Shown here: piece by piece, positions 18,629 to 35,739 of the stretch
Numbering within the stretch: position 1 is the stretch's first letter
Layout: each line of letters opens with the position of its first letter
NCBI GenBank assembly: GCA_963765205.1
Contig: CAVXVB010000012.1
Location: forward strand, 1 to 62,260
Source: an uncultured Verrucomicrobiae bacterium
GTDB lineage: Bacteria > Verrucomicrobiota > Verrucomicrobiia > Opitutales > JABDGR01
DNA length: 62,260 nt
Reading direction: 5' to 3'
Notes under the pieces: model-generated
Seen by the model: the letters and a program-made list of their open reading frames with translations, nothing else
Told to the model about the DNA's origin: nothing
Database searches by the model: none
Program-made: the position numbers and the translations under genes

Positions 18629-21600
18629 ATGATAGCCCTCCATTCTTACCGGCCAATTTTAGCCGTTTTCGCCATTGGCATTTTTACTTTGACGGTACAG
18701 ACCGTGCGTGGGCAAGGGTATCGTGCAAATTCGAAGCCCAGTGCGGATAGTCAGTCCAGCAGCGTGGACTTGAGCCAAGACAAAGTTGGGGCGGTTTCTG
18801 TTTCAATGACCGCGATTCGGTGGGATGAGGTGGCGAGTCAGATGAAGGCAGACATTGTCCCGCTCACCCCCAAAGACGCCTTTCAACAGGTGCAGGGCCT
18901 CTCAGGTCTCTCATCAGCCTCCGAGATCAATATCTCCTCCCTTTTGGTTTCGCTAGGTTATAAGTTGGGGGTGGCTTCATCCACTTCTGGCAACAACACT
19001 GCGTCCACCAGTGGAAACCAGACGCCCGCTGGCCCGGTTGCGCTGCCCGAATTTACCGGGAATCTAACTATGGACCTGCGGTTAAACTACGAGGAGGCAA
19101 CAGCGCTAATGCAGTGGCTCACTGCCCTTAACCAGAGAATTCAGTATGCAAATGCAAACGGCTATAGCGCATACTTGGTTAATCTAAACCTGGACTTGGC
19201 CGTGTACAAATCCAATGCGCCAGTCAATGTGTTTACCACCTTAACTTTTTTCTCCTACGATGAAAACAACCCTAAGAAATTGAATGAAAAACAACCCATC
19301 GTAATTCCGATTCTCGCTACGGATGACTTGGAGGAATTTCGGGTTAATAATGTGGCCCAACAACTTCAAAATCGCGAGCTGGACCTGGCTGGAGCATTCC
19401 ATCTTTTCAATGGGGCAGTCAGCGCGTCAAATAGCAATAACGGATCTCGGAATTTTGCTGGTGATCAATTTAATTCACTGAATACATCGGCCCCTTTTGC
19501 ACAAAACGGTTACCTCATACGTTTTGGGGCTCGGCAGACCACTAATGGTCTCGGACTTGTGCCGCAATCCCAACTTGTGCCAATAGTGGTGCTGGTGCCT
19601 TCCCATGACAATTCGAGCAGTGAGAAAACGATGGTTCCTCCCGACATCCGATGGGTCAGTTACACTGTCATGCGGGACGCTTTTACAGGTACGGTATTAC
19701 CGCAATTAACTCGGGCGAATCGCCTCGACACTGTAAGTGTTGATTTGCGTGGATTTTATGATCCAGACAAATCGACAGATTCTCCAATCGAGAAGCTTGC
19801 TAAGGATATCGTCGACCAATTAGTTGCGCCTTTTACGCCTGAAACGCCCAGCGAAAATCCCAAATCCATAAAGAATACGCTACTGAATGATGTAAGAGAC
19901 ACGAACGTAACAGATTTCTATTCCGTATTGCGAAAGTTAGATGCGGAAAACGGGAATTTATCGATCACGGTCGAACGTGACGATCTCGGCAACGTCAAGT
20001 TTAGTGAAAACCACGGTGATAAGACTAATTATGCAGACCCCGAGGTCGCCCAGCGAATCTGGACTACACTTGCCGGAGATATTTTTGAAAATGCCAAGTT
20101 CAACAGTGGAAATCTGACAATATTGGAGGAGCCAACACCGGAGCTGCCAATTAAGCAAGCGTTGATTTTGACGGACGACGGCAAATCCACGACCACCACC
20201 ATCGCCGGGGGTGATTTTCTTTCCGCACATCGCTTGATGGCGAAATTGACATTGAATAATACACCGAAATTGACTCTTGATGGCCGTGGTGTTTTCCCCG
20301 CTACAAAGGACGAAAGCGAACACGATGGCGCCCCGGCCCCAGGCGCGAGTGTCCTTTCAGGCCTGCATCCGAAAATCGCTTCCGGCACGACTTGGACTTT
20401 GGATGGCCCCATTGAGTTAGATAACGTAACAGTAGCAATTCCACTTCAAGCTGGCGCAGGATTTTTTCTTGATAAAAGGATTCCACTTCCATTGACGTTA
20501 GGCAATGGGAATATAACGGTGACCGGCAATCTCACTCTAAATGTGGATAAAGATGCATCTGCTCAATACGCGAATGGTACTTACCCGTTAGAAAATGGCA
20601 CGTATCCATTATCCATCACTGGCAACTTTAAAATTACAGGAATGCAGGGCTTATCACCATTGTCCGGCCCGAATTCATCCGCGATAAATTTAGTCCCGCC
20701 AACAGATGCCATTGCGGTCAAGGGTGATATTGCAATAACCGTAAACAACGGCCAAGTATACGCCAAACAGGCCGAAATTCCAATAAAGGCAATTACGTTT
20801 GATTGGCATAATGCCACTACTGCTTCCGCTGACCAACCTCCGCCTGCGCCCGTTCAGCCTCCGCCTGCCGCTGCCCAGCCTGCTCCAGTAACACCTAAAC
20901 TAAGTCTGGATGGACAACTTAAATTGGACATAGCTGGTATGCTTCCTGCGACAGACAAGCCAACACCACCAAAGGACCTTACTGTGAATGCCACGCTTGC
21001 CTTGAACGCGGAAGCAACCTTTCCTATAAATGGCAACGATCAGGTTAAGAGTGATTACTACACTTTTCTGGCGCAGAGTGTCACAACTTCCGCTGATGGC
21101 CATAATGTAACTTTAACTTTCCCCTCATTGAAGAACCTCGGTATCGGCAAAGCGGGCGCGGCCCTAAGCTCAAAAACTGGTGCGGACGCATCAGGGGGCG
21201 CCGATGACGGTAGCACCATCGTACAACTTCCTTCGTCAGATTTGACACTCACCGACACCGAATTTTATGTCAGTACACTGACCCCGCCTGTTGGGCAGAA
21301 GGAAGAAAGCGAATACGGTCCATTGTTTCTTTCCACGCCGAGTGAAAAATCATTGCAACCCTCCCAAGGTAGCGAGGCGATTAAACTCAAGGTGAGCACG
21401 CCAATCATGCTGGTGAATTCAAGCGGCAACGGAACATTAAATGTTTGGGTTGCAATGAATGCGGCCACCTCGGCGAATCTGGCTTTTAATGCGACGCTGA
21501 ACCCGAAAAATACTTATTACCTGAATGTTGCAGGTGCAGATGTCGACCTGGCACCATCAAGTTCTAGCAACGTGACGGCGAATGGGGCGTTTAATACTGG

Positions 21601-21892
21601 CATAGCAAACGCCACGTTGGCTGCAAATGGCACCATTACGGCGAGCAGCACATCAACGGCAAACAGCGCGATTCTTGGTGCTGACGCTGTCGGCCTAAAT
21701 ATCAAGGCTCCCGGATTGGCGATCCTTAAAGTCCAAAATGCCACCCCGGCGAACGACATCGTCGTTTCGGTGCAGGACGGGTCTGGAACGACTGTTGGCA
21801 CGCCCGTTGCCGTCCATGTGCAGCTTCAATCCAACTCAGGCGGAACAAATTCAAAATCAATCAGTTCAAGTTCTGATGGCGAAAGCAAGTAA
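18629..21892 (+). CDS. Large hypothetical secreted protein (1087 aa)
   Basis: Long ORF in visibly more AT-rich DNA; N-terminal hydrophobic signal-like stretch; Pro/Gln/Ala linker; no family recognised. Confidence 0.75.
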   Translation: MIALHSYRPILAVFAIGIFTLTVQTVRGQGYRANSKPSADSQSSSVDLSQDKVGAVSVSMTAIRWDEVASQMKADIVPLTPKDAFQQVQGLSGLSSASEINISSLLVSLGYKLGVASSTSGNNTASTSGNQTPAGPVALPEFTGNLTMDLRLNYEEATALMQWLTALNQRIQYANANGYSAYLVNLNLDLAVYKSNAPVNVFTTLTFFSYDENNPKKLNEKQPIVIPILATDDLEEFRVNNVAQQLQNRELDLAGAFHLFNGAVSASNSNNGSRNFAGDQFNSLNTSAPFAQNGYLIRFGARQTTNGLGLVPQSQLVPIVVLVPSHDNSSSEKTMVPPDIRWVSYTVMRDAFTGTVLPQLTRANRLDTVSVDLRGFYDPDKSTDSPIEKLAKDIVDQLVAPFTPETPSENPKSIKNTLLNDVRDTNVTDFYSVLRKLDAENGNLSITVERDDLGNVKFSENHGDKTNYADPEVAQRIWTTLAGDIFENAKFNSGNLTILEEPTPELPIKQALILTDDGKSTTTTIAGGDFLSAHRLMAKLTLNNTPKLTLDGRGVFPATKDESEHDGAPAPGASVLSGLHPKIASGTTWTLDGPIELDNVTVAIPLQAGAGFFLDKRIPLPLTLGNGNITVTGNLTLNVDKDASAQYANGTYPLENGTYPLSITGNFKITGMQGLSPLSGPNSSAINLVPPTDAIAVKGDIAITVNNGQVYAKQAEIPIKAITFDWHNATTASADQPPPAPVQPPPAAAQPAPVTPKLSLDGQLKLDIAGMLPATDKPTPPKDLTVNATLALNAEATFPINGNDQVKSDYYTFLAQSVTTSADGHNVTLTFPSLKNLGIGKAGAALSSKTGADASGGADDGSTIVQLPSSDLTLTDTEFYVSTLTPPVGQKEESEYGPLFLSTPSEKSLQPSQGSEAIKLKVSTPIMLVNSSGNGTLNVWVAMNAATSANLAFNATLNPKNTYYLNVAGADVDLAPSSSSNVTANGAFNTGIANATLAANGTITASSTSTANSAILGADAVGLNIKAPGLAILKVQNATPANDIVVSVQDGSGTTVGTPVAVHVQLQSNSGGTNSKSISSSSDGESK

Positions 21893-22037
21893 GACCTGGA
21901 CCGTCGCCGAAATTTGATTGGGGTGTTCGACAACAAACCAGATTCCTTGTAGCTAACGGAATGCCATGCCACATAACATTTCCATAAGGGTCATTTATGG
22001 AATTGCAATAATCTCATTCGCAAGTAAAAGCAGGTTT

Positions 22038-22784
22038 ATGAACAAGCGACTCACGAGCCTTCTGTTGATCATTCTCTTGGGGGGATGTTGCTGCCCGGGG
22101 TTCAATGCCAATTTGGCGGCCCAACCGGCATCAAATTCAACCGCTTCCTCGACTGGCAATCTACCCGACCATACGGTCTATTTGACGGGAACGGAAAATG
22201 TCTGGAATACCTTTCCTAAATGTCCGGCCCTTGGCTCCGAAATTGACCAAAGCGACCTTTTGATAACGCTATCTATTCAAGCTTCGCGCACGATCGAGCA
22301 AAAGAAAGAGGCCTTTCAGGATAATGACTATTCCATCAAGCTGGTGACTGCACTCATCGACCCCGCGTTCGACGTAAAGTATCAGCATGTATTCCATGTG
22401 CTCAACAACGCCGATGGCGACGCTTATGTCATCACGGCGATAGTTAAAAAGGCCAACGGCCGATTGAGGCCATATGTTCAGCATCCAATTTTAGTTCAAC
22501 CACTCGTTACATCAGGCGATTTTAGCTACCCGAGCGGACATGCTTCCGGCATGGAGCTTCAAGCGCGAATCCTGGGAACTCTCTTTCCCAACCAAGCCGA
22601 CGCGTTGCTTAACCGTGCACGGCAAATTGCAGATAGTCGGGTCGTCGCCGGGGTTAATTACACCAGCGATACTGAAGCCGGGCTTACCTTAGGCGACCTG
22701 CTTTTTACTGAACTTGAGGCCAACGACAAATTCAAGAACGATCTATCTACGGCCGAAACGCTGGACAAAATTTCGACTAAATGA
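22038..22784 (+). CDS. PAP2-superfamily (class A acid phosphatase-like) protein, probable lipoprotein
   Basis: Motifs KKANGRLRP, SYPSGH and SRVVAGVNYTSD; lipobox-like LLGGC after MNKRL. Start placed at ATG 22038. Confidence 0.8.
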   Translation: MNKRLTSLLLIILLGGCCCPGFNANLAAQPASNSTASSTGNLPDHTVYLTGTENVWNTFPKCPALGSEIDQSDLLITLSIQASRTIEQKKEAFQDNDYSIKLVTALIDPAFDVKYQHVFHVLNNADGDAYVITAIVKKANGRLRPYVQHPILVQPLVTSGDFSYPSGHASGMELQARILGTLFPNQADALLNRARQIADSRVVAGVNYTSDTEAGLTLGDLLFTELEANDKFKNDLSTAETLDKISTK

Positions 22785-23214
22785 GTAAAATGCAGCTGTT
22801 AATGGCTTCAGGGCTGAGAGGGATATTTACTGCTACGGATTCAATGAAATGTCCGACTTGCGGCGCGGTCAAAAATCGGTTGAATTCGTAGTGTGTGTGT
22901 CCGCTATACCCTTTACAAGTCCGATGCGGCGCTGGCGGTAGCTTGGGATGCATGACCTTTTTCGTTTCGATTGTTCAGCAAATCCTTGCCGGGATGATTG
23001 AAGCAAGGCAAAGGTCATCAACAACGACCAAGTTGCAGAAATCCACCGCGCCCCAGGGGGCGGGCGTGAAGTGGCGACGCCGGGGGAAAAATAAGGGCCG
23101 TCCTCATCGGGATTGCCCAAGGATCGCGTAATTCGCGTAATTCGCGTTTTGCGCAAGGACGGGGGCGGGGCGTTTGCGGTAGGGTGGGCGCATGTTTTTA
23201 ACGATTCCTTCGCC

Positions 23215-23413: not shown

Positions 23414-24322
23414 ATGACCACCAGAAAATCCAAAATCGCGCGGCTTCCGGTCGCGCTTCGCGACGAACTAAACCAGCGCCTGCTTGACGGGGCGGAGGGC
23501 GCGCAACTGGTTGTATGGCTAAACGACCTGCCCACGGTGCGGGAACTGTTGGCGAAGGATTTCGCCGGCCGGCCCATCACCGAGCAGAATCTGAGCGAAT
23601 GGAAACAAGGTGGCTACGAGGACTGGCTCCGTCATCAGGAGGCGCGGGACTGGGTGCGTGCGTGCCGCGTGGAAGCCGCGGAGTTGGGTGAGGATGCGGG
23701 CGCTTTCTCGGTGGCTGATTGTCTCTCTCCGGCGCTGGCCGTCGCGCTGGGCCGCTGGCTGCGCCATGCCGCCGCCCATGCGCCAAATGATCCGGCGCAG
23801 GCGAACGCTTTGTTGGTCGTGGCGGAGGCGGTGGACCGGGTTCGGCGCGGCGACCATCGCGCCCAATCGCTGCGCTTGGACCGCGAGCGCTTCGAAATGC
23901 AGTTTTGCGCCGGCTTCCTCAAATGGCGGAAAAACGAAAAGGCCAACGCCATCGCCGAGGACAAGACTTTCGACAATCGGGCTAAAATCGCGCTCCTGCG
24001 CAAACTCATGTTTGGAGACCGGCTCGAATCGGGTAAAGAAGAAATGCCTGAAATGCCTGCTCCGCAGGACGCCACGATGGGCGCCACCGGCTCCGCTGCC
24101 GTGAACGAAGCGCCTCATCCCGTGGCCGCTGAAGGGCCGAGTGCTGTGGCCGCCGCATCCGTCCACCTTGAGCCGGCCAATTTGCCTGCCGCTCCCAAGC
24201 AAACCAGCCTAATCCAACCAAATTCAAGCAAATCCAACCAAATACCGCCCATGGATCCAAACAGCCACAGAGAGTTGGTTGGATTAGGCCCTCCCGGCCC
24301 CCCATACACCCTCCTTTGCTGA
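23414..24322 (+). CDS. Hypothetical protein with DUF3486 (phage Mu gp27)-like N-terminus
   Basis: N-terminus RKSKIARLPVALRDELNQRL resembles DUF3486; low-complexity C-terminal tail. Confidence 0.55.
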   Translation: MTTRKSKIARLPVALRDELNQRLLDGAEGAQLVVWLNDLPTVRELLAKDFAGRPITEQNLSEWKQGGYEDWLRHQEARDWVRACRVEAAELGEDAGAFSVADCLSPALAVALGRWLRHAAAHAPNDPAQANALLVVAEAVDRVRRGDHRAQSLRLDRERFEMQFCAGFLKWRKNEKANAIAEDKTFDNRAKIALLRKLMFGDRLESGKEEMPEMPAPQDATMGATGSAAVNEAPHPVAAEGPSAVAAASVHLEPANLPAAPKQTSLIQPNSSKSNQIPPMDPNSHRELVGLGPPGPPYTLLC

Positions 24323-24442
24323 ATATTTAACAACCAGCACATTTCATGCCAATATCATTGATAGTCAACGGGTTGCGAAATCTGGAAAAGCGAACTAACT
24401 GCATGGCAACCAATCGGTTAGATTGGAATACCTAAATGTGGC

Positions 24443-24571
24443 TTAACACCGTTTTAACGGAAAGACCGCGCCTCTTCATTATGCAGCCGGGGAAGGATGC
24501 GATATTATGGCCCCATGATCAACGAGGTTTGCTCGAATTTGATCACCCGCCGCCTGGCGGGGCTTTTTTAA
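24443..24571 (+). promoter_or_regulatory. Putative kdpA1 promoter and attenuator-like leader
   Basis: TTAAC repeat at 11-bp period (24443, 24454); TATTAT at 24503; hairpin 24516-24545; GC hairpin CCCGCC-gcct-GGCGGG (24546-24561) followed by T6, ending 30 nt before the ATG. Confidence 0.5.
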
Positions 24572-24598
24572 ATCAGCCAAAATCATCTCCCGCTTACC

Positions 24599-26509
24599 AT
24601 GAATTCCAACGCTGTCATCGAAACTGTTTTATTCTTCGGGATTGGCATCGCGCTGACCCCGCCGCTGGGCAACTACATGGCGCGCGTGTTCAAGGGCGAG
24701 AAGACCTTTCTCCAGCGCTTCATCCTCCCGTTTGAGAAACTCATCTACCAGCTCAGCGGCGTGGACTCCGCCGAGGAGATGACCTGGCTGCGCTACTTGT
24801 GGGCGGTGGTGGTTATGGGTTTGGCGGGGGTGTTTGCACTCATGGTGATTTTCATGACCCAGCAATGGGAGCCGCATTTTCTCAACCCCCAGGGGCTGCC
24901 CAATGTCTCCTGGAACATGGCCTTTAACGAGGCCTGGAGTTTCACTTGCAACGCCGACTGGCAGGACTACTCGGGTGAGTCCACCTACAGTTATTTCTCC
25001 CAGGTCTGCGGCGTGATGGTGCACCAGTTCATCAGCGGCTCGACCGGGCTGGCGATTCTGGTGGCCTGCGGCCGGGCGCTCAAGCGCGCCTCGACCAAGA
25101 GCATCGGCAACTTCTGGGTGGATGTGACCCGCTGCCTGCTCTACATCACCCTTCCGCTCTCGGCCTTGTTCGGCCTTTTCCTCATGTCGCAGGGTGTTCC
25201 GCAGACGATGGGTGATTATCCGAACGCCACGGTGGTCGAGCCCTATAACAATCAAATTCCCAAGCTGGACGACAAGGGCAACCCCGTGACCACCAAAGTC
25301 GCGGTTACCGAATCCAAGCCCAAGCTCGATGCGTCCGGCCAGCCCGTCAACGGCCCCGATGGCAAGCCCGTGATGATGGACGTGCCCAAGCTGGACGACA
25401 AAGGCCAGCCGGTGATGACCGACCAGCCGGTGATGGTGGACAATCGTGTGGACTCGCAGACGATACCGATTGGCCTGGTGGCGTCCTTCGAGTCCATCAA
25501 GCAGCTCTTCACCAATGGCGGCGGCTGGTATGGCGTCAACAGCGCCCATCCTTTTGAAAATCCGACGCCATTCGCGGACTTCCTCGAATTGCTGGCCATC
25601 ATCATTGTGCCCATGGCGCAGGTCTATATGTTCGGCGTGCTCGTCGCCAACAAGCGCCACGCTTGGTGCCTCTTTGCGGTCATGCTGGTGTTGTATCTAT
25701 TCTCCTTCGGCGTGGGTTGGTGGGCGGAGTCGCAGCCCAACCCCGTGCTCGGCGCGCAATACCGCCCGTTGATGGAGGGCAAGGAAGTGCGTAATGGCGT
25801 TGAGAACAGCGTGCTCTGGGCCGTCTCTTGCACCGCCATTGACAACGGCTCGGTCAACTGCATGCACGACAGCCTGATGCCGCTGGCCGGCCTGATGCCA
25901 ATGTGGAACATCATGATCGGGGAAATGCTCTTCGGCGGCATCGGCTGCGGCATGTATTGCATGCTCTTCCATGTGCTCATCACCGTCTTCATCTGCGGGC
26001 TGATGATCGGGCGAACTCCCGAGTATCTCGGCAAAAAACTCGGGGCGTGGGAGGCGTCCTGGGCGGTTGTGGGCGTGCTGCTGCCCAACGCCGCCGCGCT
26101 CATCCCTGCCGCCTTTGCCTGCGTTACGGCCTGGGGCCAGGCGGGCCTGACCAATCACGGCCCGCACGGCTTGAGCGAAATTTTGTATGCCTACGCGGAG
26201 GCGGCCAATAACAACGGCAGCGCCTTCGCCGGCCTGACGGTCAACACTGTCCCTTATGACCTGACGCTGGGCCTCTCGATCATCATCGGCCGCTTCGCGC
26301 CGATTGTGGCCGCGCTCGCCATTGTCGGCAACCTGGCCAAGAAAAAGACGGTCGAGGCCTCCGCCGGCACCCTGCCGACGCACGGCTGGACTTTCGGCCT
26401 CAGCCTCACCGGCGTTATCGTCATTGTCGCGGCGCTGACCTTTTTCCCCGCCCTGCTGCTTGGGCCCTTCATCGAGCATGGCCTGATGCTGGCCGGGCGG
26501 GCATTCTAG
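24599..26509 (+). CDS. kdpA: K+-transporting ATPase subunit A, divergent copy 1
   Basis: YSGEST, TNGGG, NSAHPFENPTP, EGKEVR, GRTPEYLGKK, NxGPHGLSEILYA, NNNGSAFAG. Confidence 0.92.
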   Translation: MNSNAVIETVLFFGIGIALTPPLGNYMARVFKGEKTFLQRFILPFEKLIYQLSGVDSAEEMTWLRYLWAVVVMGLAGVFALMVIFMTQQWEPHFLNPQGLPNVSWNMAFNEAWSFTCNADWQDYSGESTYSYFSQVCGVMVHQFISGSTGLAILVACGRALKRASTKSIGNFWVDVTRCLLYITLPLSALFGLFLMSQGVPQTMGDYPNATVVEPYNNQIPKLDDKGNPVTTKVAVTESKPKLDASGQPVNGPDGKPVMMDVPKLDDKGQPVMTDQPVMVDNRVDSQTIPIGLVASFESIKQLFTNGGGWYGVNSAHPFENPTPFADFLELLAIIIVPMAQVYMFGVLVANKRHAWCLFAVMLVLYLFSFGVGWWAESQPNPVLGAQYRPLMEGKEVRNGVENSVLWAVSCTAIDNGSVNCMHDSLMPLAGLMPMWNIMIGEMLFGGIGCGMYCMLFHVLITVFICGLMIGRTPEYLGKKLGAWEASWAVVGVLLPNAAALIPAAFACVTAWGQAGLTNHGPHGLSEILYAYAEAANNNGSAFAGLTVNTVPYDLTLGLSIIIGRFAPIVAALAIVGNLAKKKTVEASAGTLPTHGWTFGLSLTGVIVIVAALTFFPALLLGPFIEHGLMLAGRAF

Positions 26510-26515
26510 CTGTGG

Positions 26516-26556
26516 CTCGATGGGGACATTCTCTCCTAAGAGAATCCCCTATCGAG
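26516..26556 (+). terminator. Imperfect stem-loop after kdpA1 (terminator or processing site)
   Basis: CTCGAT/ATCGAG, GGGGA/TCCCC and ATTCTCT/AGAGAAT arms; no U-tract. Confidence 0.4.
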
Positions 26557-26599
26557 ATATGGCACCGCTTGTCCGACCCGGACAAAGCTAATCAATGGA

Positions 26600-26616
26600 T
26601 TTATAACTCTTTTATA
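26600..26616 (+). promoter_or_regulatory. KdpE-box-like direct repeat upstream of kdpA2
   Basis: TTTATA-ACTCT-TTTATA, same geometry as the E. coli KdpE site TTTATA-CTTTT-TTTACA. Confidence 0.55.
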
Positions 26617-26720
26617 AGTAACGTTTAACGGGGAAAATATTTGCAACTCAATGTTTCCTTAACATCCCGACGCCCGATTTTAACTAGGTATTTCGAGCAA
26701 TAGCGCGTAGAATCGGCACC

Positions 26721-28625
26721 ATGAACTCCAACGAAATCATTCAGGTGGTGTTTTTCTTCGGTGCGGTGATTGGGCTGGCGCCCGTCCTCGGCCGCTTCAT
26801 GGCGCGCGTCTTCTCCGGGCAGCGGACCTTTCTGCATCCCGTCCTCCAGCCGGTCGAGAACGCCGTCTATAAGGTGAGCGGCATCAACCCGGCCGAGGAA
26901 ATGACCTGGCTGCGCTATTTCTGGGCGGTCTTAATCTTCAATGTCGTGGGGCTGCTCTCCCTCATGGCCATCCAGATGACGCAGGCCTGGTTGCCGCTCA
27001 ACCCGCAGAAGTTCGACAACGTCCCTTGGGCGCTGGCGCTAAATACGGCGGTCAGCTTCGTCACGAACACCAACTGGCAGGCGTATTCGGGCGAATCCAC
27101 CCTGAGTTACTTCACGCAAATGGCCGGGCTGGCCGTGCACAACTTCCTTAGTGCAGCGACGGGCATTGCCATTCTGCTGGCCCTGGCGCGCGGGCTGAAG
27201 CGCGCCTCGTCGAAGGTTCTTGGTTGCTTCTGGGTGGATATGACCCGTGCGACCCTTTATGTGCTGGCGCCGCTTTCCATTATCTTCGCCATGGGCTTGA
27301 TGAGCCAAGGGGTGGTGCAAAATTTTTCCAGCTATGCAAACGCCACCGTGATCGAGCCTTACAATAATCAAATTCCCAAGCTGGACGACAAGGGCAACCC
27401 GGTGACGACCAAAGTCGCGGTCACGGAATCGAAGCCCAAGCTCGATGCCGCGGGCAAACCCGTGAACGGTCCGGATGGCAAACCGGTGATGATGGACGTG
27501 GCCAAGCTGGACGACAAAGGCCAGCCGGTCATGACCGACCAGCCCGTGATGGTGGACAACCGCGTGGACTCCCAGACTATTCCCACCGGCCCGGCGGCCT
27601 CGCAAATTGCGATCAAGCAACTGGGCACCAATGGCGGCGGCTTCTTTGGCCAAAACAGCTCGCATCCCTTTGAAAATCCAACGCCGCTGAGCAATTTCAT
27701 CGAAGTGTTCGGCCTGATCATTATTGCGGCGAGCTTGGTCTATACCTTTGGGCTGCTGGTCGGTGATGCGCGCCAGGCGCGGGTTTTATTCGGCGTCATG
27801 CTGGCGCTGCTGGTGGGCGCTTTTGCGGTTGCCTGGTGGGCGGAATCCCAGCCCAACCCGGTCCTCGGTAACACCTACCAGCCTTTGCTGGAAGGCAAGG
27901 AGGTCCGCTTGGGAGTGATGAACAGCATCCTCTTCTCAGTGGCGACCACGGGCACCTCGTGCGGCGCGGTCAATGCCATGCACGACAGCTTCATGCCGCT
28001 GGCCGGCCTCGCGCCGCTGTGGAACTTGATGCTCGGCTGCATCGTGTTTGGCGGCGTCGGCGCGGGCTTGTATGGCATCATGCTGCACGTGCTCATCACC
28101 GTGTTTATCGCGGGGCTGCTGATTGGGCGCACGCCGGAATACCTCGGTAAAAAAATTCAGACCTGGGAGGCCACTTTTGCGGTGGCCGGCATTCTCATTC
28201 CCAACATGATCATTCTGCTCGGCTCGGCTGTCGCCAGCCAATCCGCCGACGCGCTTTCGAGCCTCGGCAACCATGGGCCGCATGGGCTGAGCGAACTTCT
28301 TTATGCCTTTGCGTCCAGCGCCAACAATAATGGCAGCGCGTTTGCGGGCCTGAACGCAAACACGAATTTTTACAACCTGATCCTGGCTGCGGCGATGTTT
28401 CTGGGCCGGTTTGGCGTTGCGTTCTGCGTGCTGGCGATTGCCGGCGGGCTGGCCGCGAAAAAGACCGTGCCCACCTCGGCCGGCACCCTGCCCACGCATG
28501 GCTGGACCTTCGGCCTGACGCTCACCGGCGTCATCGTCATCGTCGCGGCCCTGACTTTCTTCCCCGCGTTGCTGCTTGGGCCCTTTGTCGAACACGGCCT
28601 GATGCTGGCCGGCCGGTCCTTCTAA
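26721..28625 (+). CDS. kdpA: K+-transporting ATPase subunit A, copy 2
   Basis: Canonical filter motifs FVTNTNWQ, LGTNGGG, TSCGAV, NNNGSA. Confidence 0.96.
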   Translation: MNSNEIIQVVFFFGAVIGLAPVLGRFMARVFSGQRTFLHPVLQPVENAVYKVSGINPAEEMTWLRYFWAVLIFNVVGLLSLMAIQMTQAWLPLNPQKFDNVPWALALNTAVSFVTNTNWQAYSGESTLSYFTQMAGLAVHNFLSAATGIAILLALARGLKRASSKVLGCFWVDMTRATLYVLAPLSIIFAMGLMSQGVVQNFSSYANATVIEPYNNQIPKLDDKGNPVTTKVAVTESKPKLDAAGKPVNGPDGKPVMMDVAKLDDKGQPVMTDQPVMVDNRVDSQTIPTGPAASQIAIKQLGTNGGGFFGQNSSHPFENPTPLSNFIEVFGLIIIAASLVYTFGLLVGDARQARVLFGVMLALLVGAFAVAWWAESQPNPVLGNTYQPLLEGKEVRLGVMNSILFSVATTGTSCGAVNAMHDSFMPLAGLAPLWNLMLGCIVFGGVGAGLYGIMLHVLITVFIAGLLIGRTPEYLGKKIQTWEATFAVAGILIPNMIILLGSAVASQSADALSSLGNHGPHGLSELLYAFASSANNNGSAFAGLNANTNFYNLILAAAMFLGRFGVAFCVLAIAGGLAAKKTVPTSAGTLPTHGWTFGLTLTGVIVIVAALTFFPALLLGPFVEHGLMLAGRSF

Positions 28626-28661: not shown

Positions 28662-30752
28662 ATGAGCACCAAAGTCGAATTCAACTATAGCCAACTCGTT
28701 CGCACCGCGATCATTGACTCGTTCAAGAAATTGAATCCGAGGGACGAGATCAAGAACCTGGTCATGTTTGTGGTCTGGGTCGGCTCGGTCATGACCACCA
28801 TCTTCCTGTTCCTGCCGCACCAGTTCAACCTGTTCAACACCCAGATTTGCTTCTGGCTGTGGTTCACCTGCATCTTCGCGAACTTCGCGGAGGCCATGGC
28901 CGAGGGCCGTGGCAAGGCTCACGCCGACGCCCTGCGCAAAATGCGCACCAAGACCATGGCGCGCAAGCTCGTCAACGGCAAGGAGACGGAAGTGGCGAGC
29001 AGCCAATTGAAAATCGGCGACCACTTTGTCGTCGAGGCCAACCAGCTCATCGCGACCGACGGCGAGGTCATTGACGGCATCGCCACGGTGGACGAATCCG
29101 CCATCACCGGGGAATCCGCGCCGGTCATCCGCGAAAGCGGCGGCGACCGCAGCGCCGTCACCGGCGGCACCCGCGTGCTGAGCGACCGCATCGTCGTGCG
29201 CGCCACGGCGGAAGAAGGCAACACCTTCCTCGACCGCATGATTTCCATGATCGAAGGCGCGCGCCGGCAGAAGACGCCGAACGAAATCGCGCTCAACATC
29301 GTGCTCGTCAGCCTCACGGCGCTGTTCATCGTCGTTGTGCTCACGCTGCCGCCCTACGCCCTCTATGACGAGATTGACGCAAAGCAGACGGATGTCGTGC
29401 TCGTTTCGCTGCCCGTGCTCTTGTCACTCATTGTCTGTCTGATTCCGACCACCATCGGCGGCCTGCTCAGCGCCATCGGCATCGCCGGCATTGACCGCCT
29501 CATGCGCCGCAACGTGCTCGCCACCAGCGGCCGCGCCGTCGAGGCTGCGGGCGACGTGGACGTGCTTCTGCTCGACAAAACCGGCACCATCACCATCGGC
29601 AACCGCATGGCGACCGATTTCCTCCCCGCGCCCAATGTGGCCGTGGCCAAACTCGCGGAGGCGGCGCAGCTTGCCTCCATGGCCGATGAAACACCGGAAG
29701 GCCGCAGCATCGTCGTCTTGGCCAAGGAAAAATATAATCTCCGCGGGCGCGAAGTCGGCGGCGCTGGGATGCCCGCGACGTTCATTCCCTTTACCGCACA
29801 AACCCGCATGAGCGGCGTGGACATCGAAGCCACGGGCAAGGATCCTATTCGCTGCATTCGCAAAGGCGCGGCCGAGAGCGTGCAGGCCTGGGTCGAAGGG
29901 CAGGGCGGCGTGTTTCCCTCCGAAGTCTCCGAAGGCGTGGATCGCATTGCCCGCGCGGGTGGCACGCCCCTCGTCGTGGCGGAAAACACGCATGTGCTCG
30001 GCGTCATTTACCTCAAGGACATTGTCAAGGGCGGCATCAAGGAACGCTTCGCCCAACTCCGCCAGATGGGCATCAAGACCATCATGGTCACGGGCGACAA
30101 TCCCCTGACTGCGGCCGCCATTGCGGCCGAAGCCGGCGTGGATGATTTCATCGCCCAGGCCAAGCCCGAGGACAAACTTGCCCGCATCCGCAAGGAGCAG
30201 GAAGGCGGCAAGCTCATCGCCATGATCGGCGACGGCACCAACGACGCCCCCGCGCTCGCGCAGGCCGACGTGGGCGTGGCCATGAACACCGGCACCCAGG
30301 CCGCGCGCGAGGCCGGCAACATGGTGGACCTCGACAGCAACCCCACCAAGCTCATTGACGTCGTCGAAATCGGCAAGCAACTGCTGATGACCCGCGGCGC
30401 GCTGACGACCTTCAGCATCGCCAACGACGTGTCGAAGTATTTCGCCATTCTGCCCGCCATGTTTGGCCTGCTGTATGCGACCAAGGCGGGCGGCAAAGGC
30501 CCCCTCGATGCTTATAACATCATGTATCTGCACTCGCCGCAGAGCGCGATCCTCAGCGCGGTGATTTTCAATGCGCTGATCATCGTCGCACTCGTTCCGC
30601 TGGCGCTCAAGGGCGTGAAATACCAACCCCTTGGCGCGGCGACTATCCTGCGCAAGAACATGCTCATCTACGGGGTCGGCGGCATTATCCTCCCGTTCAT
30701 CTTCATCAAGCTGATAGACGTCATCCTGGTCGCGGTCGGCCTGGCTCCTTGA
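28662..30752 (+). CDS. kdpB: K+-transporting P-type ATPase subunit B
   Basis: [46 protein letters not shown]. Confidence 0.98.
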
Positions 30753-30798: not shown

Positions 30799-31545
30799 AT
30801 GAAACTCATCATCCAATCCATCCTCCAGACCCTCCTCTGGACCATTCTCCTGGGCGTGTTGTATCCGCTCGTCATGACCGTGATTGCCCAAGTGGCCTTT
30901 CCCTACCAGGCCAATGGCAGTCTGATCAAGGACGACAAGGGCAACATCATCGGCTCGGAACTGATTGCCCAGCAATTCACGGGCGCCAAGTATTTCTGGC
31001 CGCGTCCGTCCGCCTCGGCCAATGCGCCCCAAATTTCGGCCTACGGCACCATGCCCGCCGGCGCCAGCAACCTGGGCCCGACTAGCTCGGCGCTGCAAAC
31101 CGCCGTGCAGACGAACGCCAAGGCCATGCGCGACGCGCACGCCAAGTGGATGAAGGACCCCGTCAACGACCCCATCCCTTCGGACCTCGTCTTTGCCTCT
31201 GCCAGCGGCGTTGACCCCGACATCACTCCCGAGGCGGCGCGATTCCAAATCGGCCGGGTCGCGGACGCCCGGGGATTGAAAACGGAAGAGGTCGGCGCGC
31301 TGGTGGACCAATTTGTCAAGGGGCCCCAGTTCGGCTTTCTTGGTGAGGCCCGCGTGAATGTGCTCAAACTGAACCTGGCCTTGGATGCCAAGTGGCCGGC
31401 CACGAAACCTGCCATCACCCCGCCGCCGGCTTCACTTGCAGCGCCGGCAGCGGCGGCCGGGACTGCGGCGCCGGCGTCGGCTTCCGGGACGGCTCCCGCC
31501 GCCACGACCGCCGCGGCAACCGCTCCCGCCCCGACCACTAATTGA
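30799..31545 (+). CDS. kdpC: K+-transporting ATPase subunit C with Ala/Pro/Thr-rich tail
   Basis: YPL..T..AQ..FP.QANGSL, YFWPRPS, ASNLGP, SASGVDP.I, RVNVL.LN.ALD. Confidence 0.96.
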   Translation: MKLIIQSILQTLLWTILLGVLYPLVMTVIAQVAFPYQANGSLIKDDKGNIIGSELIAQQFTGAKYFWPRPSASANAPQISAYGTMPAGASNLGPTSSALQTAVQTNAKAMRDAHAKWMKDPVNDPIPSDLVFASASGVDPDITPEAARFQIGRVADARGLKTEEVGALVDQFVKGPQFGFLGEARVNVLKLNLALDAKWPATKPAITPPPASLAAPAAAAGTAAPASASGTAPAATTAAATAPAPTTN

Positions 31546-31555
31546 GGAATGAGCC

Positions 31556-32074
31556 ATGAATGCGAAAAAAATCCTGGTCCCAGTGACTTTAGCCGAAGGC
31601 TCGGGTGCCGCGGTCGCGGTGGCCTATCGGCTCGCGGAGGATTTGTCCGCCACGCTCGTGCTCCTGCACGTCGTGCCCGAAGGCGGGGCGGCGGAGGTTG
31701 AGCAGGCGAAAGTCAAACTCCAGCAGTTGGCGGAAAGGACCCATTTAACTCTGCCAATTGAGTGTGTGGTATGCACCGGCCCGGTCGCGCAACAAATCGT
31801 GGCCAAGGCCGTCGAATTGCAAGCGGACACCATGGTCATGTGTACACATGGCTATCGCGGCTGGTTTGGGTGGTCGCACCGCAATACCGTGCGCGAGGTG
31901 CTCGGGCGCGTGCATTGCCCGGTCTGGCTGATTTCGCCCGGCCCGGTCGGCGACATGCCTACGTTGTCGGTTCTGTCCAAGGAGGAGGAGCGGCAGAATT
32001 TTCCCCGGGCCGGCCGCACGGCCAATCTGTTTCCGTTTCCCGCGTCGCTGCGAACCCTGCTTCCTTCCGGCTAA
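31556..32074 (+). CDS. Universal stress protein (USP domain)
   Basis: KKILVPV...LVLLHV...G.VA..I...A....AD..VMCTHG...VL....CPVW; GAGG RBS. Confidence 0.85.
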   Translation: MNAKKILVPVTLAEGSGAAVAVAYRLAEDLSATLVLLHVVPEGGAAEVEQAKVKLQQLAERTHLTLPIECVVCTGPVAQQIVAKAVELQADTMVMCTHGYRGWFGWSHRNTVREVLGRVHCPVWLISPGPVGDMPTLSVLSKEEERQNFPRAGRTANLFPFPASLRTLLPSG

Positions 32075-32305: not shown

Positions 32306-32386
32306 TGGAGGCAATTGGCGTGTTCGGCATGGACAATGCGCCCTGCTTCCGATACACGCATCATGGCGCTTCGCTCATATCGCAAC

Positions 32387-35050
32387 ATGGATGCTGATTC
32401 TCACCGGCCCGATCCGGATGCCTTGCTCGCGCGCGTGCGCTTGGAAGAGTCGCGCGCCCAGCGCGGGCGCCTGAAAATTTTTCTCGGCATGTGCCCGGGC
32501 GTGGGCAAGACCTACTCGATGTTGCGCAACGCGCGCAAGGAAAAGAGCGACGGGGTTGACGTGCTCGTCGGGGTCGTCGAAACCCACGGCCGCGTCGAGA
32601 CCGAGGCGCTCCTTGACCAGTTGCCCGTCCAGCCGCGCAAGGAGTTGCCCTACCGCGACACGGTGCTCAAGGAAATGGATTTGGAGGGCATCCTCGCCAA
32701 GCGTCCGGCCTTGACGCTCGTGGATGAATTGGCGCACAGCAATGCGCCCGGCTCGCGCCACACCAAACGCTGGCAGGATGTTGTCGAACTGATCGAGGCG
32801 GGCCTCAACGTCTTTACCACCGTCAACATCCAGCACATTGAATCGCGGGCCGACGCCGTCCGCCAAATCACCGGCGCGCTTGTGCAGGAGACGGTGCCGG
32901 ATTCCATTTTTGATCTCGCCGACGAAATCGAATTGGTGGACTTGACGCCGGAGGCGCTGCGCGAGCGCCTGGCCGAGGGCAAGGTGTATCTCGGCGAGCG
33001 CGCCGCCACCGCGCAGGAGAATTTTTTCCAGGAAGCGCACCTGACGGGCCTGCGCGAACTGGCCTTGCGCTTCACCGCCGAGCGCGTGGACCGCCAGGTG
33101 CGCGAGCGGCGCACCGGGGACGGCAGCCGCGTGGTTTGGCACAGTGGCCAGCGTTTGCTCGTGGCCGTCGGCCCCAGCCCGTTTTCGACGCAGCTGGTGC
33201 GGCGCACGCGGCGCATGTCCGAAGCTGCCGGAGTGCCCTGGGTCGCCGTGCATGTCGAGTCCTCCCAACCGCTGCCGCCAGAAGGCCAGCGGCTGCTCGA
33301 CAAAAACCTCGCCTTGGCCCGCGAGCTGGGCGCGGAGGTTGTTATCACGCACGATGACGATGTGGCCGCCGCCCTCGTGCGCGTCGCGCTCGAATATAAC
33401 GCGACCCAAATTGTGGTGGGCAAGCCGCGTGGCAGCCGGTGGGAGGAGTTTTGGCGCGGCGGGTCGCTGGTGGATCGCCTGGCGCGCAAAGGCGGCGACA
33501 TAGATATCTGCATGGTGCCGGGCGAGCAGACCAAACGCGCGCGGCTGCGCCTCCTGCGGGGCCTGCGCTGGTCCAGCCCGCGCGAATATGCGCTGGCTCT
33601 GGCGGTGATTGCCGCCATAACGGTGGGCGGATTTTTGCTGAAGGATTTAATAACTTACCGCTCGATCGGCTTGCTCTATTTGCTCGCGGTCATCGGTCTG
33701 AGCCTGCGCATTGGCCGCTGGCCCAACCTGTTGGCCGGTTTCCTCGCGGCGATCGCCTGGGACTATTTTTTCATTCCCCCGATCTTTACGTTTACCATCG
33801 GTTCGTTGGAGGATAGAATGCTCTTTGTGGCGACCATCGCGGTGTCGCTGGTCGCCGGGCAGCTTACTTCCCGCATCCGCGCCCAGTCCCGCAATGAGCG
33901 CCTGCGCGAGGAGCGCGCCACCGCGCTCTTCCACCTGAGCCGCGCGCTCGGCGCCGCCAAAACACTCGACGATGCCGTCTTCGCCGCCCTGCGGCAGGTG
34001 GACGATTTATTCGGCGCGGAGAGCGCCTTGGCGTATGTGGATGAAAACAGCCACACGCTGGTGCCGCATTTTGCGAGTTCCTACCCGCTGGAAGGCAAGG
34101 AGCAGGGCGTGGCCGACTGGTCCTTCCACAACCGCCGCGCCGCCGGCCGCTTTACCGACACGCTGCCCGGCAGCGAGGGCTATTACGTGCCCTTGCTGAG
34201 TGAAGACAAGGCCGTCGGCGTGCTGGGCGTGCGGCCGAAGGAGCCACTCACGCTTGCCCAGCGCGATTTGTTGGAGGCCTTCGCGCGCCAACTCGCGCTC
34301 ATCATCGAACGTGATCATTTGCGCTCCGCGGGCGAGCGCGAGCGCATCCTTGTCGAATCCGAAAAATTGCACCACACGCTGCTCGAAAGCGTCTCCCACG
34401 AATTGCGCACGCCCCTGGCCGTTATCACCGGGGTGAGCGAAAACCTGCCCAAAGCCGACGTGGCGTTGCGCGAAAACCTCTTGGGCGAGTTGCGCACCGC
34501 GGTGCGCCGCCTCAACCGCCTGGTGGGCAATTTGCTTGACCAGACCCGCCTCGAAAGCGGCGCGCTCAAGCCGCTCCTGGATTGGTGCGACGTCCACGAC
34601 CTTGTTAATGCCGCGGTGGAGGCAACGCGCGACGCCCTCGCGGGCCACCCGCTCACCCTGGTGATTCCCGAAAACCAGCCGCCGGTGCGCGCCGACTTTG
34701 CGCTGACGGAGCAAGCCCTGGTGAACCTGCTGCTCAACGCCGCGCACCATACACCGGCTGGAACCAGCGTCTCCGTCAACGTGGGTCTGGAGTCGGACGG
34801 CCAGCAGGTATTCTTCGCGGTGGCGGATCGCGGGCCCGGATTTCCGCCATCAGCTCGCGAGCATTTCTTCAAGAAATTTGTGCGGGGCGAGAGTGCGCGT
34901 GCCGGTGGTCTGGGCCTGGGCTTGTCCATCGTGCAAGGCTTTATCGCCGCGCAAGGCGGCGAAGTAACCATTGGCGACAATCCCGGGGGCGGTGCGCGGA
35001 TAACGCTTCACTTGCCCCACGTTCCCCTCAAGACTCCTCCCCCAGAATGA
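32387..35050 (+). CDS. kdpD: Sensor histidine kinase KdpD
   Basis: RPDPDALL, GVGKTY, LVDELAHSN, USP region, 4 TM, SHELRTPL H-box, GLGLGL G-box. Confidence 0.97.
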   Translation: MDADSHRPDPDALLARVRLEESRAQRGRLKIFLGMCPGVGKTYSMLRNARKEKSDGVDVLVGVVETHGRVETEALLDQLPVQPRKELPYRDTVLKEMDLEGILAKRPALTLVDELAHSNAPGSRHTKRWQDVVELIEAGLNVFTTVNIQHIESRADAVRQITGALVQETVPDSIFDLADEIELVDLTPEALRERLAEGKVYLGERAATAQENFFQEAHLTGLRELALRFTAERVDRQVRERRTGDGSRVVWHSGQRLLVAVGPSPFSTQLVRRTRRMSEAAGVPWVAVHVESSQPLPPEGQRLLDKNLALARELGAEVVITHDDDVAAALVRVALEYNATQIVVGKPRGSRWEEFWRGGSLVDRLARKGGDIDICMVPGEQTKRARLRLLRGLRWSSPREYALALAVIAAITVGGFLLKDLITYRSIGLLYLLAVIGLSLRIGRWPNLLAGFLAAIAWDYFFIPPIFTFTIGSLEDRMLFVATIAVSLVAGQLTSRIRAQSRNERLREERATALFHLSRALGAAKTLDDAVFAALRQVDDLFGAESALAYVDENSHTLVPHFASSYPLEGKEQGVADWSFHNRRAAGRFTDTLPGSEGYYVPLLSEDKAVGVLGVRPKEPLTLAQRDLLEAFARQLALIIERDHLRSAGERERILVESEKLHHTLLESVSHELRTPLAVITGVSENLPKADVALRENLLGELRTAVRRLNRLVGNLLDQTRLESGALKPLLDWCDVHDLVNAAVEATRDALAGHPLTLVIPENQPPVRADFALTEQALVNLLLNAAHHTPAGTSVSVNVGLESDGQQVFFAVADRGPGFPPSAREHFFKKFVRGESARAGGLGLGLSIVQGFIAAQGGEVTIGDNPGGGARITLHLPHVPLKTPPPE

Positions 35051-35739
35051 CCACCCCCGCCAAACCGCGCCTCCTCATTATTGATGACGAAGTGCAAATC
35101 CGCCGCCTCCTCCAAGTCACCCTTGAAGAGGGTGGCTTCGACGTGCGCGAAGCCGACACCGGCCGCCTCGGCCTCAGCGAGGCGGCCGCACTCCAACCCG
35201 AGGCGATTATTCTGGACCTCGGCTTGCCGGACATGGACGGGCTCGACGTTCTGCGCCGTTTGCGTGAATGGTCGCAGACTCCCGTGCTCGTACTCACGGT
35301 GCGGGACCGCGAGCAGCAAAAAATTGCGGCTCTCGACGCCGGCGCGGACGACTACCTGACCAAACCCTTCGGTGGTGGTGAATTGCTTGCGCGCTTGCGC
35401 GCCATCATGCGGCGCGTGCGCGCGCCCAACGAGCCGGCCATTGTGCGCTTTGGGGAAATTGAAGTGGACCAGCCCGCGCGCCTTGTGCGCCGGGCCGGCC
35501 AGGAAGTCCACCTGACGGCGAAGGAATACGCGTTGCTGCGGCTCCTTGTGCAGCACCGCGGCAAAGTCGTCACGCACCGGCACATCCTGCGCGAACTCTG
35601 GGGCCCCAACGCCGAGGAAAATACCGGCTACCTGCGCGTGTATATGCTCCACTTGCGCCAGAAACTCGAAGCCGACCCGCAAAAACCCAAGCACCTCACG
35701 ACCGAGTCTGGCATCGGTTACCGGTTAGTCGAGGCCTAG
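35047..35739 (+). CDS. kdpE: Response regulator KdpE (OmpR family)
   Basis: IIDDE, LDLGLPD.DG, GADDYLTKPF, LRQKLE.DP..P, GIGYR; ATGA overlap with kdpD. Confidence 0.95.
   Translation: MTTPAKPRLLIIDDEVQIRRLLQVTLEEGGFDVREADTGRLGLSEAAALQPEAIILDLGLPDMDGLDVLRRLREWSQTPVLVLTVRDREQQKIAALDAGADDYLTKPFGGGELLARLRAIMRRVRAPNEPAIVRFGEIEVDQPARLVRRAGQEVHLTAKEYALLRLLVQHRGKVVTHRHILRELWGPNAEENTGYLRVYMLHLRQKLEADPQKPKHLTTESGIGYRLVEA

Follow-up and report, generated by a model that had tools for sequence, protein, structure and literature searches.

A conserved Verrucomicrobiota clade of KdpA with an altered selectivity filter, and a member encoded in tandem with a canonical KdpA ahead of one kdpBC

We analyzed a 62,260-nucleotide stretch of DNA (hereafter the window) from an uncultured soil bacterium of the Verrucomicrobiae (GenBank assembly GCA_963765205.1, contig CAVXVB010000012.1). 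On its forward strand, two tandem kdpA genes, kdpA1 (24599–26509, 636 amino acids) and kdpA2 (26721–28625, 634 amino acids), lie ahead of one kdpB (28662–30752) and one kdpC (30799–31545). KdpA2 has a canonical selectivity filter. In KdpA1 the filter is altered, and the same altered filter is invariant in a conserved clade of KdpA1 relatives, nearly all of them from Verrucomicrobiota. With moderate confidence, we propose from these comparisons of sequence that kdpA1 encodes the entry subunit of a conserved Verrucomicrobiota Kdp subtype, that its rebuilt filter likely shifts the affinity, pH dependence, or fine selectivity for K+ (or for a K+-like monovalent cation), and that KdpA1 likely shares the single KdpB–KdpC with KdpA2 in this genome.

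Two kdpA genes and the filter of KdpA1

The source assembly (4.02 Mb in 12 contigs, 92% complete; labelled G000 among the genomes that we compared) contains two kdpA genes but only one kdpB and one kdpC, according to a profile search of its contigs. Thus, the usual rule of one kdpA per kdpBC in kdp operons does not hold here, and the claim of the initial annotation that two KdpA subunits are encoded for a single KdpBC is borne out. Both proteins match the KdpA family in Pfam (PF03814) far above the cut-off of 22.6 bits (KdpA1, 685.3 bits, E = 6e-206; KdpA2, 741.5 bits, E = 5.7e-223), and they are 64% identical to each other (409/636 residues). The adjoining kdpB encodes a P-type ATPase with D307, P264, D583, and K586, and kdpC lies next to it, as expected of a kdp operon. 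The structural genes are also linked to kdpD and kdpE, as in a KdpD/KdpE regulon.

The filter of KdpA1 reads CNADWQ (residues 117–122, nucleotides 24947–24964), LFTNGGG (residues 303–309), IDNGS (residues 414–418, with the codon for Asp415 starting at 25841), and NNNGS. The corresponding motifs of KdpA2 are TNTNWQ, LGTNGGG, TSCGA, and NNNGS. These are exactly the motifs and coordinates that had been given for the two proteins in the initial annotation. Canonical filters have TNT[ND]WQ in the first loop, a glycine ahead of TNGGG in the second, and Ser, Ala, Gly, or Thr at the position of E. coli S343 in the third; KdpA2 has these side chains and KdpA1 does not. (Except where residues of KdpA1, KdpA2, or KdpB are named as such, we use E. 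coli KdpA numbering, which was transferred by aligning the proteins with PDB chain 6hra_A and with the product of the K-12 gene.)

The initial annotation emphasized that two filter positions of KdpA1 had become Asp. Both Asp residues are present, but only one of them is special. Among 150 representatives of 50%-identity clusters spanning all KdpA, Asp at the N114 position is common (26 of the 136 that were readable there), and at the C344 position the majority carry Asn (61 representatives). In contrast, Asp at S343 occurs solely in a fragment that belongs to the KdpA1 clade, and Phe at G229 was found in none of 143 representatives. T111C, T113A, G229F, A342I, and S343D are each confined, or almost confined, to the clade, so the clade-specific changes are more numerous than the two Asp residues that first drew attention.

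A comparison of alignment columns between 61 clade members, 7 KdpA2-type proteins, and 45 other KdpA gave 19 positions that are fixed in the clade (a residue in at least 95% of the clade and at most 5% elsewhere): L16G, V107W, T111C, T113A, A141G, F188P, G229F, F235W, T264M, L266Q, E272L, T339C, A342I, S343D, G382C, L385F, S462E, M489I, and A514E. These substitutions cluster on all four pore loops. N114D, S378C, and V496P are also each present in 61/61 clade members. KdpA1 retains the glycines G232, G345, and G468, along with N112, T230, N466, N467, E370, and R493; the residues of KdpA1 that correspond to G232, G345, G468, and R493 (G307, G417, G540, and R565) are present in 61/61 clade members.

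Around its filter and vestibule, KdpA1 is acidic at four positions (N114, S343, E370, and S462). E. coli KdpA has one of these acidic residues (E370). KdpA2 has none, because Cys replaces E370 (residue 440 in the window's KdpA2; Cys in 9/9 KdpA2-type proteins). In E. coli KdpA, neutralization of E370 is reported to raise the Km from 0.023 mM to 0.5–0.8 mM, or about 30-fold (PMC12629597).

A preprint assigns the main K+ site, S3, to the carbonyls of N112, T113, T230, S343, C344, N466, and N467, and the S4 site to A342, S343, G374, S378, and N466 (bioRxiv 10.1101/2025.03.04.641403). By these lists, the clade-specific changes fall on S3 and S4 residues and on the scaffold around them. The overall fold is predicted to be the usual one: the AF2 model of KdpA1 (pLDDT 90.2, pTM 0.86) matches E. 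coli KdpA (7nnp_A, 6hra_A, and 5mrw_A) in Foldseek with a target-normalized TM score of 0.96, as expected for the four-repeat, channel-like architecture.

A conserved clade and its genomic context

A search for homologs of KdpA1, along the lines that the initial annotation had suggested for the NAD/DNG variant of the filter, recovered a conserved clade. In a collection of 5.8 billion proteins, the best 120 of 7999 scored matches to KdpA1 (67–90% identity) all carry CNADWQ, FTNGGG, and IDNGS (120/120). A scan of one genome per species gave 69 loci with KdpA1 relatives, and the full-length proteins from these species-genome loci have the identical motif set (60/60). The lowest pairwise identity inside the clade is 66%.

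Most of the 69 loci (64) are labelled as Verrucomicrobiota (Opitutaceae/Opitutales, Limisphaerales, and Verrucomicrobiia). The other five are labelled as other groups, on contigs that are 67–78% identical to KdpA1, and these labels are likely to be binning errors. Bog, fen, palsa, or SPRUCE isolate labels accompany 15 of the 69 loci. Among 401 evenly drawn genomes of the phylum, only three contain the CNADWQ-coding pattern, and G000 is one of these three. The clade is niche-restricted and is not a trait of the whole phylum.

We found no description of a natural KdpA subfamily with a filter like that of KdpA1, nor of tandem kdpA genes that share one kdpBC, in the full-text literature (subscription journals were outside this search). 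The KdpA1 clade, with its rebuilt filter, is apparently a previously undescribed branch of KdpA.

A single clade unites the variant proteins with those of the KdpA2 type (FastTree support 1.0, UFBoot 100), and within it the KdpA1 clade is sister to the KdpA2-type clade (monophyly of the latter, UFBoot 98). The stem branch of KdpA1 is about four times longer than that of KdpA2 (0.35 vs. 0.08). Both genes are under purifying selection, and neither is decaying: dN/dS (Nei-Gojobori) is 0.118 for kdpA1 (the window vs. L026, of the same genus) and 0.064 for kdpA2 (the window vs. L090). As kdpA1 is also a single open frame, the initial annotation was right to call it intact, and the relaxed selection that would have spoken against its proposal is not seen.

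Both proteins contain an insert of about 87 amino acids, where E. coli KdpA has 18 residues. In KdpA1 it spans residues 205–291 (25211–25471), and it lies between the two halves of the PF03814 match, which is split at profile position ~203–210. It is predicted to form an ordered, beta-rich domain (strands within residues 209–288 of the AF2 model, pLDDT 88–91). The insert of KdpA2 (27327–27587) is Pro/Lys/Asp-rich with PKLDDKG-type repeats, as in KdpA1. Across relatives, the inserts come in size classes of 47, 67, and 86–87 amino acids, with the same class in both paralogs of a genome. The inserts of A1 and A2 from one genome are 72–91% identical, while those of A1 orthologs from different genomes are 49–66% identical (except in the close pair L031/L052). 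The filter-bearing cores follow the opposite pattern (58–64% between A1 and A2 within a genome, and 76–95% between A1 proteins of different genomes).

These identities within and between genomes show a pattern of concerted evolution in the insert. Recent gene conversion was considered and is not proven, as synonymous divergence in the insert is just moderately lower (pS of 0.46 vs. 0.59–0.60 otherwise). In our reading, the likeness of the inserts may reflect old or repeated exchange, or co-adaptation to shared partners. That the insert is homogenized while the filter-bearing cores stay distinct argues for selection on the difference between the cores.

In 57 of the 60 loci, the variant kdpA is followed directly by kdpB and kdpC. 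(In two others the contig ends there, and in L027 kdpA2 intervenes.) Both paralogs with one kdpBC were found in about six loci, in three arrangements: A1-A2-B in the window, L027, and L090; A2-A1-B-C in L031 and L052; and A1-B-C-A2 in L055. The layout is fluid even within the window's genus, where one genome (G003) has A1-A2-B, another (G006) has A1-B-C-usp-kdpD with kdpA2 on a separate contig and no kdpB downstream of it, and a third (G001) has A2-B-C alone. The initial annotation proposed an exchangeable-subunit pump. One kdpBC does serve two kdpA genes here, but across the clade the variant usually has a kdpBC of its own, and the shared layout is confined to those six or so loci. Nevertheless, as A1-B-C (57/60 loci) and A2-B-C (G001) both occur as operons with only that kdpA, it is plausible that both subunits assemble with one KdpB.

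The initial annotation had also suggested testing whether the clade is always paired with a canonical kdpA. To assess co-occurrence, we searched 50 of the 64 variant-bearing genomes with PF03814 and tallied by hand the matches listed, which were all but five. Among these matches, at least 45 of the 50 genomes have at least one further kdpA, so the pairing is usual; it is not universal, as the variant is the only kdpA among the matches listed for five genomes (G076, G081, G084, G091, and G101). Of 20 further kdpA genes that were fetched, 18 were readable and all 18 are canonical (TNTNWQ, GTNGGG, and TDASCGA, with E370), as are six further kdpA genes in the flanks of variant loci. In the six KdpA2-type genomes whose kdpA content was read, there is no third kdpA in G000 or in four of the five others (the exception is G066). 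The variant is thus normally accompanied by one canonical kind of KdpA, either KdpA2 on a shared kdpBC or the KdpA of a full kdpFABC operon.

These full operons, which we term A3, commonly lie no more than 10 kb away from that of the variant (L028, L029, L030, L035, L038, L050, L060, L061, L076, and L082). They differ from kdpA1 in having TNTNWQ, GTNGGG, and ASCGA filters with E370 and a kdpF whose product ends in PEKF, and their KdpA proteins form a distant clade, 44–48% identical to KdpA1. A kdpF-like peptide ending in PEKF is encoded ahead of the canonical kdpA in six loci (L029, L035, L038, L059, L061, and L076), and in three of these (L038, L061, and L076) a second small hydrophobic open reading frame (ORF) precedes it. 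We found no small hydrophobic ORF upstream of either kdpA in the window, and a regular expression for PEKF-type kdpF matched ahead of no A1- or A2-type gene, although this expression is narrow and a divergent KdpF could be missed.

The window's KdpB is of the type that is found behind variant kdpA genes elsewhere: it is 75–92% identical to those KdpBs and 65–68% identical to the KdpBs of canonical operons. The 52 KdpBs encoded next to A1 or A2 show no variation at S162, F232, P264, T265, T266, D307, N582, D583, and K586; at N624, 51 of them have Asn and the other has a gap.

Three loci have unusual structures. In L033, KdpA2-like pieces with three in-frame TGA codons lie upstream of the variant kdpA (G068:C10:432172-433634); as the kdpB of this locus is also in pieces, they may be due to an assembly error rather than a pseudogene. 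In L046 (8996–10327), the variant kdpA is separated from kdpB by a small ORF and by an oppositely oriented gene for an HNH endonuclease that has homing-endonuclease repeats. Finally, G066, which has an A2-A1 pair, encodes a second, unrelated dual-kdpA operon (L097:3375-7698, on G066:C3). The filters encoded by its tandem kdpA genes read TNTNLQ/VTCGA and TNTDLQ/VTDGA, with GGKG as the vestibule motif. The products are 32–33% identical to KdpA1 and KdpA2, and the genes are followed by kdpB, kdpC, and a response regulator. This separate lineage suggests several independent origins of dual kdpA genes.

What KdpA1 might admit

In the explanation that we favor, KdpA1 would be a working ion-entry subunit that feeds the unchanged site of KdpB through the usual tunnel. 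The ion would still be bound in the carbonyl cage of S3, since G232, G345, G468, and the backbone positions are kept. Below S3, the S4 site would change from a pair of Ser hydroxyls (S343 and S378) to Asp and Cys, and the rebuilt, more acidic S4 and filter scaffold would shift the K+ affinity, the pH dependence, or the discrimination among monovalent cations. In the window's genome, KdpA1 would alternate with the charge-poor canonical KdpA2 on the single KdpBC. With four acids in KdpA1 and none in KdpA2, the same ATPase would be given two electrostatically different entry paths.

KdpA1 shares several features with the KdpA of E. coli KdpFABC (PDB 5MRW, 6HRA, and 7NNP). The predicted fold is the same (rmsd of 2.5–2.8 Å at 38% identity), the operon logic is shared (kdpA-kdpB-kdpC-kdpD-kdpE), and so are the residues listed above as retained in KdpA1 and the site and catalytic residues of KdpB. 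KdpA1 differs at T111C, T113A, N114D, G229F, F235W, A342I, S343D, S378C, S462E, and V496P, and the locus differs by the ~87-residue beta-rich insert, by having two kdpA per kdpBC, and in that kdpF was not found in the window. In laboratory mutants of E. coli KdpA (Q116R, G232D, and E370Q/K), a single change in one of these loops or in the vestibule charge shifts Km and selectivity, and the ion that is let in is still pumped by KdpB (PMC12629597). KdpA1 keeps both Q116 and G232, and its remodeling is natural, at many sites, and fixed in the clade at other positions. A looser parallel is TrkG and TrkH of E. coli, which are likewise two paralogous subunits of the channel-like superfamily in one organism and for which distinct ion transport is reported (PMC9898762); however, the Trk systems are neither P-type pumps nor encoded by tandem genes on one ATPase.

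The alternative that we take most seriously, although we consider it doubtful, is that KdpA1 lets the Kdp pump carry another monovalent cation, most plausibly NH4+ (or Rb+, Cs+, or Na+), while KdpA2 or a separate canonical operon supplies K+. S3 and S4 residues and the scaffold are altered, with new Trp, Phe, and Asp residues near the filter (V107W, G229F, F235W, and S343D), and the variant is nearly always beside a canonical KdpA, as expected if its function were not redundant. Also, in E. coli, the single mutation G232D admits Rb+ and NH4+, which KdpB, described as "relatively promiscuous," then pumps (PMC12629597). On the other hand, KdpA1 keeps the filter glycines and the backbone positions of S3, the operon carries kdpD and kdpE, and the site residues of KdpB are the same as in canonical pumps. 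Furthermore, no nitrogen-metabolism genes were found among 55 flanking ORFs of 10 variant loci or in the flanks of the window, and five of the 50 genomes would have only the variant. A more specific form of this idea, to which we give a low probability, is that one P-type motor is fitted alternately with two filters and pumps two ions, with KdpA2 (K+) and KdpA1 (NH4+ or another non-K+ cation, through an S4 of Asp and Cys and an aromatic-lined scaffold). If so, this would be the first natural ATP-driven pump for KdpA1's ion on a Kdp chassis, and the first natural P-type pump with exchangeable selectivity.

It seems unlikely that KdpA1 and KdpA2 are equivalent K+ isoforms whose filter differences are compensated, historically frozen, and kinetically silent, with the duplication adding dosage or regulatory flexibility. 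Such an explanation would fit with both kdpA genes being in one kdpDE-linked operon, with the wide occurrence of N114D and C344N in ordinary KdpA, and with the natural variability of E370 that is noted in the E. coli work (PMC12629597). But apart from fragments of the clade itself, none of the 150 representatives has G229F (0/143) or S343D, more than 180 sequences with identities down to 66% carry the motif without any change, and the stem of A1 is about four times that of A2. Silent differences would also sit poorly with the homogenization of the insert next to cores that remain distinct, and with about 45 of 50 genomes keeping both the variant and a canonical kdpA.

Lastly, pores that are selective for Ca2+ have acidic rings, and the extra acids of KdpA1 (D120, D415, and E534) might be thought to resemble them. 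However, that KdpA1 admits a divalent cation, or that it is a nonconducting regulatory or sensor subunit, seems very improbable. The canonical site of KdpB (the D583/K586 pair, P264, and N624) is unchanged and also serves KdpA2 here, and KdpA1 keeps R493 and E370. Since most operons with KdpA1 encode no other KdpA, it must conduct the ion that is pumped.

Several observations weigh against the subtype with a shifted filter that we favor. In the five genomes with no second kdpA among the matches listed, which are metagenome-assembled, A1 alone may be enough as a channel for Kdp, and this fits plain K+ uptake as well as it fits a special role. The monophyly of KdpA1, which has a support of 0.97 with all columns, falls to 0.59 (FastTree) and 64 (UFBoot) when the insert and the C terminus are left out. 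The placement of the D415 side chain at S4 comes from alignment to E. coli residues, and the set of KdpBs compared for subtype-specific residues comprised six sequences. Finally, the second promoter between kdpA1 and kdpA2 that is described below, although likely, is proposed from conservation alone.

KdpFABC is a model for the coupling of a channel-like filter to a P-type pump, and its selectivity has so far been probed solely with laboratory mutants. A natural and strictly conserved clade with S343D, S378C, T113A, G229F, and S462E and an untouched KdpB site is a ready-made experiment on affinity and selectivity. As this genome offers a single KdpB and KdpC to both the variant and its canonical sister, the effect of the filter could be separated with native partners. 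If the variant does change the ion or the pH range, this would also account for the retention of two Kdp entry subunits by Verrucomicrobiota of soil and peat.

Regulation and neighboring genes

Upstream of kdpA1 there is a direct-repeat box, TTAACACCGTTTTAACG (24443–24459, forward strand), with a period of 11 bp, which is likely to be an operator of the OmpR/KdpE type. A loose regular expression for TTAAC-type half-sites with this spacing matches 29 of 61 regions upstream of variant genes, as compared to 0.29 on average, and 3 at most, in shuffled sequences. The box is kept in three species of the window's genus, and in L031, L052, and L027 a box of this type precedes both of the tandem kdpA genes. 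We dropped the E. coli-type KdpE box, which we take to be TTTATA-N5-TTTAYA, in favor of the TTAAC-type repeat: it has one match in the window's spacer between kdpA1 and kdpA2, none in the spacer of L090, and one among the 61 regions upstream of A1.

That spacer (26510–26720, 211 bp) contains TTAAC elements (26657–26688) and TAGAAT (26708–26713), and no terminator-like site was seen in it. The corresponding spacer in L090, from the same genus, is 79% identical, and both the TTAAC-containing blocks and TAGAAT are conserved, which makes a second promoter likely. With a promoter-like region for each kdpA, the ratio of kdpA1 to kdpA2 could be regulated.

A GC-rich hairpin followed by a T-run (24546–24571, forward strand), which resembles a terminator or attenuator, lies in the leader of kdpA1, 28 nucleotides before the start codon. 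Congeners have a hairpin and T-run at the same position (L026 and L094), with different letters in the stem, and it may be an attenuator. We rejected a riboswitch or another RNA of a known family ahead of kdpA1 or within the spacer, as Rfam gave no match at E ≤ 1 in 23800–27000 and none at the gathering score in nine related loci.

Downstream of kdpC, on the same strand, are a stand-alone universal stress protein gene (usp, 31556–32074, identified by Pfam), the sensor kinase kdpD (32315–35050, with KdpD, Usp, DUF4118, GAF, HisKA, and HATPase_c domains), and, directly behind it, the OmpR-type response regulator kdpE (35047–35739). In six of 10 variant loci (L039, L046, L049, L058, L074, and L078), genes for Hanks-type Ser/Thr protein kinases adjoin the variant kdpA-B-C. 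In L078, the kinase carries a fused PP2C phosphatase domain; no such kinase gene was found in the flanks of the window.

Finally, the GC content of the window shifts in the region 18629–22999: it is 0.49 up to ~22.5 kb, and the low-GC part holds an ORF of 1087 amino acids (18629–21892) with no match in Pfam. From ~23 kb on, through the kdp operon, the GC content is 0.59–0.66.

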